A stretch of 64,000 nt of DNA from a virus: the IMG/VR virus record IMGVR_UViG_3300022700_000177, positions 19,929 through 83,928 of that record. One strand, written 5' to 3'. The translations under genes and the position numbers were made by a program. This document shows, in pieces, positions 35,591 through 36,904 of the stretch (position 1 is the stretch's first letter; the number at the start of each line of letters is the position of its first letter). The notes below the pieces were generated by a model, which did not search any database, was not told the origin of the DNA, and saw nothing but the letters and a program-made list of their open reading frames with translations.

Positions 35591-36904
35591 TTAAATTGTG
35601 TATTGTTCAGGTTTTACTTTATCTATAATGTCAGAACTATATTCACCAGAAACATTGGAAACACATACTGCATAGTAATACTCACCAGAAATAAGCTCAC
35701 CGGAAACAAACTCACCTGATATATGGGTTCCGTCTTCTTGGTTAGACACTTCATAAGAACCGCCAACAGAATTTGCTTTTGCAACCAAATTACCAGTGCT
35801 TCTGTTGTATATTCTTACTGGTCTATTTGACAAAACACTTTTGACCCTAACTTCTCCATATATTTTATAAGCCGTTACTGTTGCTACTTGTTCTTCCTCA
35901 GTCCCGAAGGTCAGGAGGTTGTCGGTTTGGGCGTAGTAATTGGCCTTTCTCCAGGCAGCGGATCTTGCAACATCAGAAACTCTTAACTCATCTAAAAACC
36001 CATCTAAGTTCTCGTTTTGCTTGTTCGCATGACCGCCACCCCAATCATTTAAGGAAAAGTCAGTTCCTTGCGAAGCATTCCCTTTAGCTGAAGCATCCTG
36101 CTCGTAATAAATAGTACCAGATGAATTGTATAAAACCCCACAGACCCATCTATCCTCATCAGCACTAAAATCGGCAGGACCTAAATTTAAAGCTGAACCG
36201 CCATCGTGTTGTAAGTAAACATCATCATCATCCTTCCTTTGGAAATCAGTACTTGTTGAATCGTTATTGCCAAATATACGATGACTTGAACTTCCTGCTT
36301 GCATATAATAAGCAAACTCAAGAGTCCAATCGCCACCAGATGACAACGTAATTGTGCTATTTAAAGCAACATGGTCTCCGTTGCCATCAAACTCTTTGCC
36401 ATTTCCTAAAAGACCATCATTTCCAGTTGCATCGCAATTGTCTGTTCCGCTGTTACTGCCAACAGAATCCGTCATTCCTCCATCATGGGAAACATAAGTA
36501 TAGTTGCCATCCCAAACATTCTGAGCCACAGCGTCAGTCGTATCTCCAACGTAAGTGGTGTTGTCCGCTTTTGTGGAATCGTAGTACAGGTACAGCGTTG
36601 AGGCTCCGCTGGAGGAAAGCTCCAGATCAGATTTGGATACCCACAATACCGCCTCTTCATTCGCATCGTCCCAACGCTCGATCTCAACATAAATTTGGGT
36701 TGTACCGTCATCTTTGGTGACGGCGATTTTCTTCCGGTTGGCATCAGAAGTCAGTTCATCAAAGACCGCTGAAACATCATCTGAGGATTGCCCGACAGCC
36801 GTGCCTAAAACAATAGGGATCGGAAAGTGAGTCAGATCACTGTCGATGTTGGTATTATCAACGGTGATCTCTATTCGTTTAGCCCAATCGGAAAGCCATG
36901 CCAT
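35591..36904 (-). CDS. DUF2341 + LamG-like virion / receptor-binding protein
   Basis: WL..W.KR..IT.D...ID..LT.FP, YVEIERWD, LYLYYD; FDG..D, G.LDELRVS..ARS.AW. Confidence 0.75.
   Translation of the reverse strand: MAWLSDWAKRIEITVDNTNIDSDLTHFPIPIVLGTAVGQSSDDVSAVFDELTSDANRKKIAVTKDDGTTQIYVEIERWDDANEEAVLWVSKSDLELSSSGASTLYLYYDSTKADNTTYVGDTTDAVAQNVWDGNYTYVSHDGGMTDSVGSNSGTDNCDATGNDGLLGNGKEFDGNGDHVALNSTITLSSGGDWTLEFAYYMQAGSSSHRIFGNNDSTSTDFQRKDDDDVYLQHDGGSALNLGPADFSADEDRWVCGVLYNSSGTIYYEQDASAKGNASQGTDFSLNDWGGGHANKQNENLDGFLDELRVSDVARSAAWRKANYYAQTDNLLTFGTEEEQVATVTAYKIYGEVRVKSVLSNRPVRIYNRSTGNLVAKANSVGGSYEVSNQEDGTHISGEFVSGELISGEYYYAVCVSNVSGEYSSDIIDKVKPEQYTI

Follow-up and report, generated by a model that had tools for sequence, protein, structure and literature searches.

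A hydrophobic-flanked Ser-Gly-Glu motif on the virion proteins of an uncultured phage co-varies with a GT4-family gene and is a candidate glycosylation signal

Do the Ser-Gly-Glu (SGE) tripeptides that recur in the virion proteins of an uncultured phage mark sites at which a phage-encoded glycosyltransferase (GT) attaches sugar? The question is raised by a 64,000-nucleotide stretch of the IMG/VR record IMGVR_UViG_3300022700_000177 (in the following G000; 83.9 kb, 77% complete by CheckV), namely its bases 19929-83928, to which we refer as the window. An earlier note on this DNA had listed SGE copies in the products of the structural gene arm, each followed by a hydrophobic residue, and had proposed them as acceptor sites of the adjacent glycan gene cassette, foremost of the neighbouring NodZ-like GT. 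We find that one cassette gene, GT4a (29494-30810, + strand), which encodes a GT-B glycosyltransferase of the GT4 family, co-varies with the motif in related phages, and that it is the only cassette gene to do so. We therefore consider it probable that SGE with hydrophobic flanks is the recognition or acceptor signal of GT4a, i.e., that its Ser would be O-glycosylated. The suspected role of the cassette is thus supported in part, but not for the gene that lies next to the most conspicuous sites.

We assessed the enrichment of the motif separately for the two gene arms of the window. The - strand (34758-64000) encodes the virion proteins (major capsid protein (MCP), protease, tail tube, tape measure and distal tail), while the + strand (1-34767) carries replication and nucleotide metabolism genes followed by the glycan cassette at its end. 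Each of the listed virion-arm motifs is present. The arm holds 12 SGE in 9,564 amino acids (aa) compared to 3.9 expected, and a hydrophobic residue directly follows in all 12 and also precedes in 10 of them. The + arm shows 3 SGE in 11,127 aa with 3.0 expected, i.e., GSGEE, HSGEG and GSGEL, none of which has a hydrophobic residue on both sides, as already noted. With regard to the tripeptide test that had been proposed, the answer depends on the flanks: bare SGE reaches a p-value of 7e-4 in the virion arm (rank 6 of all tripeptides), which is about the level expected from multiple testing and not significant, while hydrophobic-SGE-hydrophobic is found 10 times versus 0.40 expected (p=2e-11). 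In 300 composition-preserving shuffles, the best p-value over all tripeptide cores was about 6e-6 at the 1st percentile, and none attained the SGE value. The over-representation of SGE with hydrophobic flanks on virion proteins is thereby confirmed.

Only one pattern is stronger than flanked SGE, i.e., hydrophobic-DAL-hydrophobic, which stems from the tandem repeat of one protein. A repeat artefact of this kind was rejected for SGE, whose copies are spread across seven proteins. Within the virion arm, a 687-aa protein (61897-63960, -) without PHROG match contains about 12 copies of [T/V]-S-[L/I]-D-A-L-[I/L]-x-K at a spacing of about 14-29 residues.

The largest number of sites is found in a 437-aa distal tail protein (35591-36904, -; Pfam PF13385 and PF10102), which combines DUF2341, a ConA-like/LamG domain and a private C-terminal domain with four SGE. 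Three of them form tandem pentapeptides near the C-terminus (35681-35719, -), namely ISGEF (35711-35719), VSGEL (35696-35704) and ISGEY (35681-35689), and the fourth reads NVSGEY (35642-35650, -). The homologs of this protein span residues 1-349 only and carry no SGE, and no homolog of the C-terminal domain was found among 5.8 billion proteins within a near-length range. A 145-aa virion protein (41016-41453, -; phrog_644) holds MSGEY (41349-41357) and FSGEI (41151-41159), for which the aligned positions in four homologous loci read NTTF/NPAF and IGPT/IGPA. The adjoining 331-aa virion protein (41463-42458, -) holds ISGEV (41970-41978) and VSGEL (41952-41960), where its sole homolog reads ISGVP and LAGSI. 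None of the homologs of these three proteins has SGE at an aligned position, and in none of their records was GT4a detected. Also private to this phage is YSGEV (56203-56211) of a 233-aa decoration-like protein (56125-56826, -), with SGE at this position in none of about 90 aligned homologs. The tail tube (51518-52126, -) contains TSGEV (51791-51799), a site that is conserved in GT4a-carrying phages, and ISGEL (53749-53757) is found in a 205-aa two-domain neck protein (53518-54135, -), in the following famB. The last copy, DSGEI (48629-48637, -), belongs to the 1745-aa tape measure protein of the - arm. All SGE sites of the window are internal, not C-terminal, and its MCP (54866-56110, -) has none.

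One may ask whether the private sites, i.e., those of the 437-, 145-, 331- and 233-aa proteins, are chance copies together with a local pentapeptide repeat, such that only the tube site and perhaps the one in famB are tied to GT4a. Indeed, 3 of the 10 flanked motifs belong to one tandem array, the bare tripeptide is not significant and the private sites are shared with no homolog. However, when the ISGEF-VSGEL-ISGEY array is collapsed into one, there are still 8 flanked motifs versus 0.40 expected (p=1e-8), a value that no shuffle attained, and each of the 12 virion-arm copies is followed by a hydrophobic residue. As an empirical null, GT4a-negative relatives contain only 3 flanked motifs per 103,888 aa. 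We thus regard chance as a very improbable source of these sites. The extra sites in the 437-, 145- and 331-aa distal tail proteins rather look like a re-targeting of the tag, observed in this one phage.

To place GT4a, we compared its product with families and structures. It matches Pfam PF13692 with 42.1 bits (cut-off 27) and PF00534 with 39.4 bits (cut-off 26.4), and the E-x7-E signature is intact (E315-GLSWTVL-E323), with E315 invariant in sets of 9 and of 8 aligned homologs. A sequence search of the PDB returned only the generic GT4 protein Alr3699 (1e-4). Homologs with 30-39% identity, 43 invariant columns and a conserved E-x7-E are found in about 100 related phage loci. In the relatives, GT4a makes up the N-terminal 430 residues of an open reading frame (ORF) of about 690 aa, whose C-terminal half is GT9-like (heptosyltransferase-like), with 25.7-28 bits to PF01075 (cut-off 22) and a match to the PDB entry 3tov at 7e-5.

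The relatives were collected by an MCP search, which yielded 71 IMG/VR loci at 39-55% identity, and eight long records were assembled; overall, the comparison comprises about 190 related phage fragments. A megablast of 10 kb against GenBank phages gave no match. SGE enrichment is bimodal across the eight long records. The excess is located at conserved positions of two small proteins encoded after the MCP, i.e., famA (about 160 aa) and famB (about 205 aa), while the MCPs of the relatives carry essentially no SGE. A GT4a homolog directly follows famB, the SGE-richest protein, in 25 of the 71 loci. All SGE-enriched loci either carry GT4a or end before its position, and loci without GT4a are at or below expectation. 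This is reflected in the pooled counts after dereplication: the 21 GT4a-positive loci contain 122 SGE (21.4 expected) and 46 flanked motifs (2.4 expected), compared to 25 SGE (31.0 expected) and 3 flanked motifs (3.15 expected) in the 21 GT4a-negative loci. For 76 further GT4a loci, we counted 473 SGE and 171 flanked motifs, with 84.5 and 9.4 expected, respectively.

The same relation holds for individual positions. Of 68 famB proteins from GT4a-positive phages, 41, 55, 57 and 63 have SGE at the four sites, respectively, compared to none of 17 from GT4a-negative phages. For the tail tube, the site reads [H/T/W]SGE[I/V/L] in 14 of 14 distinct GT4a-positive homologs, whereas SGE is found in none of the 10 negative ones (HTGNI, HLGSI and similar). 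It had been anticipated that homologs from phages without the enzyme would lack SGE at aligned positions, and this is what both proteins show with GT4a as the enzyme. In four GT4a-positive loci (L164, L167, L174 and L186), famB has no SGE and a 186-aa protein at the place of famA bears 4-5 copies instead; the tag therefore seems to move between proteins.

We also investigated at which level the motif is constrained. Among the single-position variants only S-G-E is enriched, i.e., TGE, SGD and SxE are not. The hydrophobic flanks are a preference rather than a rule. All 48 synonymous nine-base versions of SGE occur in the relatives at background codon frequencies, and the constraint is thus on the protein. 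Candidate motifs on the DNA level (restriction, Chi-like, or a Shine-Dalgarno-like GGTGA word) were accordingly rejected, given the background codon use in the relatives and the fact that every TCNGGTGAR copy is in frame. The window itself shows a codon bias that is not seen in the relatives, with GGT for Gly in 10 of 12 copies (36% overall) and TCT for Ser in 7 of 12.

Where are the sites located in the folded protein? A famB model from a relative, with a predicted local distance difference test (pLDDT) value of 90, shows two beta-barrel domains. Its two halves both match phage neck proteins with Z of 9-10 in VIA-align (XkdH, GTA, Chi and R4C stopper; 3f3b, 6tba, 8vhx, 8gtf), while a Foldseek search of the PDB gave weak matches. 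Together with the location of its gene between MCP and tail genes, this identifies famB as a neck protein of the stopper/XkdH/SPP1 gp16-like kind. In the model, the SGE sites are placed at strand starts directly after turns.

This placement leads to the main alternative, in which SGE is a structural turn-into-strand motif of virion folds and the link to GT4a is phylogenetic hitch-hiking within the same head module. Beside the modelled placement, it is in accordance with the related residues that GT4a-negative proteins keep (TGE-Y and S-T-E-Y-Y), e.g., TGE in 8 of 17 GT4a-negative proteins at famB site 1, which is mostly SGE in GT4a-positive ones. Furthermore, two to four changes of GT4a status suffice on the MCP and famB trees. 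The MCP tree needs two changes, as the phages without GT4a fall into two clades within the positives, and the famB tree computed without the site columns needs at least two. On the other hand, a generic turn should tolerate T, D, N or A, but only S-G-E is enriched. In both GT4a-negative clades, point substitutions (e.g., V-S-G-E-Y-Y to S-T-E-Y-Y) removed all sites from orthologous proteins, which work without SGE. That is, the motif persists over deep divergence together with GT4a and is lost in the GT4a-negative clades, and it is therefore dispensable without GT4a. Hitch-hiking within one module also fits poorly with the tube site, which tracks GT4a from a distance of 5-10 kb, and with those phages that encode GT4a on the other arm, where the motif persists and also appears at new, non-homologous sites. 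We consider this alternative unlikely, but the strongest of those discussed here.

The phages just referred to are that of the window and its closest relative found, G062 (89 kb, L261-L265; MCP 61% and tail tube 60% identity), which IMG/VR classes as a provirus. In the window, GT4a is unfused and located in the + arm beside a second GT4 gene, GT4b (30792-31931, +; Pfam), and the same layout is found in G062 and in the short metagenome contigs L237 and L241-L244. G062 was detected by an alignment-based scan for GT4b, while single-protein GT4b pattern scans returned nothing. Like the window, it carries a ribonucleotide reductase and the GT4a-GT4b pair, and its counterpart of 25775-26611 is 64% identical; the distal tail module differs. 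The tube site is kept (HSGEI), and an FSGEY aligns with ISGEL of the window's famB. The virion arm of G062 contains 12 SGE (4.7 expected) and 4 flanked motifs (0.47 expected), and no flanked motif is found outside of it (0.45 expected).

This pair of genomes bears on the question of which enzyme would read the motif. The reader could be another one, i.e., the GT9-like domain, the NodZ/O-FucT-like protein or a further GT of the cassette, or the modification could be phosphorylation of Ser at S-x-E; GT4a would then only extend the glycan or have another substrate. In favour of this, the fusion of GT4 and GT9-like domains makes them inseparable in nearly all relatives, Ser-Gly sites are modified by bacterial autotransporter heptosyltransferase (BAHT) enzymes, whose fold is WaaC-like, and the NodZ/O-FucT-like gene directly follows that of the 437-aa protein. 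However, G062 has no GT9-like domain, and G000, as a 77% complete record, has no match to PF01075 or to the GT9-like C-terminal domain of the relatives, while the motif is present in both. G062 also has neither sulfotransferase nor NodZ-like gene, which leaves GT4a as the only gene common to all motif-bearing phages. Finally, no kinase co-varies with the motif. We thus rate another reader or modification as quite unlikely, i.e., below the structural alternative.

With regard to the NodZ-like gene, its product (NodZ/FUT8/O-FucT-like, 273 aa; 34758-35579, -; final gene of the virion operon) owes the label to the ESM Atlas, with a feature score of 0.97 and a template modelling (TM) score of 0.75 to NodZ/FUT8-labelled clusters; it has no Pfam or PHROG match. 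The gene is absent from the 10 relatives examined. The remainder of the cassette (31921-34767, +; Pfam) encodes a 277-aa protein without assignment, an NAD-dependent sugar epimerase/dehydratase and two sulfotransferases. As partners of the motif, the NodZ-like gene, the epimerase at its cassette position and the sulfotransferases were all rejected, being absent from the relatives, and the NodZ-like gene and sulfotransferases are absent from every other motif-bearing phage. The earlier idea of a sulfated proteoglycan-like coat thus receives no support from the comparison, since neither the NodZ-like gene nor the sulfotransferases co-vary with the motif, and it is speculation. Its glycosaminoglycan (GAG) component finds no support either: the Pfam scan of the cassette shows GT4, epimerase and sulfotransferase families only and no GT14 xylosyltransferase.

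SGE could also be read by a protease. Prohead proteases of the phiKZ type follow the rule S/A/G-X-E, SGE fits its S-x-E form and the window encodes a head maturation protease (56849-58201). But the proteins with the motif belong to tail tube, neck and distal tail and never come into contact with the prohead protease, the MCPs are essentially free of it, and the protease is present in all relatives while the motif occurs only with GT4a. We therefore see next to no room for a cleavage site.

One of the GT4a-negative clades (G006 and G007, i.e., loci L082-L091, as well as L036, L045, L054, L068, L070 and L073) has MCP, famB and tail tube proteins that end in poly-Thr/Ser tails; C-terminal poly-Thr tails were seen exclusively in GT4a-negative relatives. 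With the exception of the MCP, it is for the most part the same proteins that carry SGE when GT4a is present. GT2 or other GT1-like genes are found in these genomes, some of them adjoining the genes of poly-Thr proteins. This suggests an alternative glycan-attachment system acting on the same proteins. Related phages thus appear to alternate between SGE with GT4a and poly-Thr tails with other GTs, which in turn suggests that a sugar coat of tube and neck is a selected trait while the system that provides it is interchangeable.

Given these observations, the favoured role of GT4a as reader of the motif can be put as a sequence of steps. Late in infection, GT4a would move a first sugar, the identity of which we can only conjecture, from a nucleotide sugar to the hydroxyl group of Ser, either ahead of assembly or in its course. 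This step would take place in the cytoplasm; soluble, nucleotide-sugar-dependent GT-B enzymes are in keeping with virion assembly in this compartment. The acceptor Ser would be placed at a turn leading into a beta-strand, at least where a model exists. The order of the enzymes thereafter is equally conjectural: in most relatives, the fused GT9-like domain would add the next sugar, while in this phage GT4b and perhaps other cassette enzymes would extend the glycan. Tail tube and neck would thereby be decorated with glycans, in this phage together with distal tail proteins and possibly with some sulfation; shielding or adhesion are conceivable roles.

A number of points weigh against this reading of SGE. 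Characterised GT4 enzymes mostly use sugar or lipid acceptors, not proteins. The number of independent GT4a transitions is only 2-3, too few pairs for an independent-pairs test to reach significance. Many GT4a-negative records are incomplete fragments, such that GT4a could lie off-contig in them. The co-variation among the relatives cannot tell which domain reads the motif, given the fusion of GT4 and GT9-like domains there, and a GT9-like gene could be missing from G000 given its 77% completeness. Within the window, none of the four canonical sites is found in famB despite the presence of GT4a, and the most striking sites, i.e., those of the 437-, 145- and 331-aa proteins, have no GT4a-positive homologs for comparison. 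The model of the 437-aa protein (pLDDT 46, below 50 over the C-terminus) is unusable to judge site exposure. DSGEI of the tape measure protein is probably a chance copy, being not conserved in 5 homologs and part of a protein inside the tail lumen. Finally, the support for a modification of Ser is a comparison of sequences, with which SGE stands as a strong candidate for a sugar-attachment signal.

How does such a system compare to known ones? Phage-encoded glycosylation of capsid and tail tube has been described for the mycobacteriophages Che8, Corndog and Myrna (Freeman et al. 2023 as cited in PMC12619734 and PMC10877033). According to these citing accounts, soluble phage GTs are likewise proposed to act there on major virion subunits including the tail tube, and a shielding of the particle is ascribed to the glycan coat. 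They place the mycobacteriophage glycans at the C-termini of capsid and tail tube, while the candidate sites considered here are internal, strictly S-G-E and known from sequence alone. The enzyme is also a distinct one, i.e., a GT4 protein with, in most cases, a fused GT9-like domain and a gene in the head module, and the MCP is no target. The poly-Thr tails on MCP, neck and tube of GT4a-negative relatives resemble the mycobacteriophage arrangement, as described in the same accounts, more closely.

Among bacterial systems, TibC and AAH modify Ser and not Thr, and the mapped serines of TibA and AIDA-I are followed by Gly, i.e., N-S-G-G and V-S-G-T (PMC4358343). A cytoplasmic GT-B enzyme that places many modifications on a beta-rich protein would be common to both cases, and the relatives of our phage carry a GT9/WaaC-like domain. 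The pattern in the alignments would fit such a preference for Ser, with SGE but not TGE enriched and an exchange of Ser and Thr with GT status at famB site 1. Differences are that the window and G062 have no GT9-like domain, that the TibA sites have no Glu at +2 and that the substrates here would be virion proteins. GtfA/GtfB is a GT4-family O-GlcNAc transferase of serine-rich repeat adhesins that acts in the cytoplasm on protein Ser, after which further GTs follow. GT4a shows no detectable sequence relationship to it beyond the GT4 fold, and the acceptor is a low-complexity Ser-rich repeat there versus a discrete tripeptide here. With the GAG signal of proteoglycans, SGE has in common a Ser-Gly with acidic neighbour and the restriction to Ser, and the window's cassette includes sulfotransferases. 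However, the Pfam scan of the cassette revealed neither a GT14-type enzyme nor a UDP-xylose synthase, and while proteoglycan sites are acidic and disordered, SGE is flanked by hydrophobic residues and placed in a beta-strand context. NGT/HMW1C is a soluble cytoplasmic GT41 enzyme with an N-X-S/T sequon (PMC3012730). It resembles the proposed system in its solubility, its cytoplasmic location and a sequon of three residues that is recognised on nascent or folded proteins; such a tag would be portable. It differs in being N-linked and of family GT41 instead of O-linked to Ser and GT4, as we propose here.

A more far-reaching version can be formulated, in which [hydrophobic]-S-G-E-[hydrophobic] is a minimal and portable sequon for O-glycosylation in the cytoplasm, read by an uncharacterised phage GT4 family. 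It would have been moved between virion proteins, i.e., neck and head-module proteins in most relatives and the receptor-proximal tail here, and in this phage the fucosyltransferase-like enzyme, together with the two sulfotransferases, would extend the glycan to a coat that is sulfated and proteoglycan-like. We consider this version in its entirety doubtful.

Phage virion glycosylation has to our knowledge been shown so far only in mycobacteriophages, and without a defined short sequon. The kind of modification is thus already known, while the predicted sequon and its predicted enzyme are new. If SGE is what GT4a reads, both form a predicted enzyme-sequon pair for the glycosylation of phage particles, which is common among uncultured phages of aquatic and sediment origin (at least 174 IMG/VR loci, more than 100 protein clusters). 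A coat of this kind would bear on phage stability, adhesion and recognition. Also, if true, a three-residue tag for a soluble GT-B enzyme would be useful in cytoplasmic O-glycoengineering, beside NGT and N-X-S/T.

Some further observations concern the gene content of the window, which has a GC content of 37%. The DUF2341 and LamG module known from the 437-aa protein is also found three times in tandem within a 3620-aa ORF of a 273-kb IMG/VR record (L005:8312-19174). A further GT gene of the window (7647-8825) was considered as partner of the motif and rejected, since 3 of 5 complete GT4a-positive genomes do not have it. It encodes a 392-aa GT-B protein with a weak PF00534 match and, together with a 109-aa gene (7647-9147 in total, + strand), adjoins 7-deazaguanine genes (PTPS, radical SAM, GTP cyclohydrolase I). 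The two genes are patchily distributed (G002, G005, G051 and G053 only), independently of SGE, and may act on DNA.

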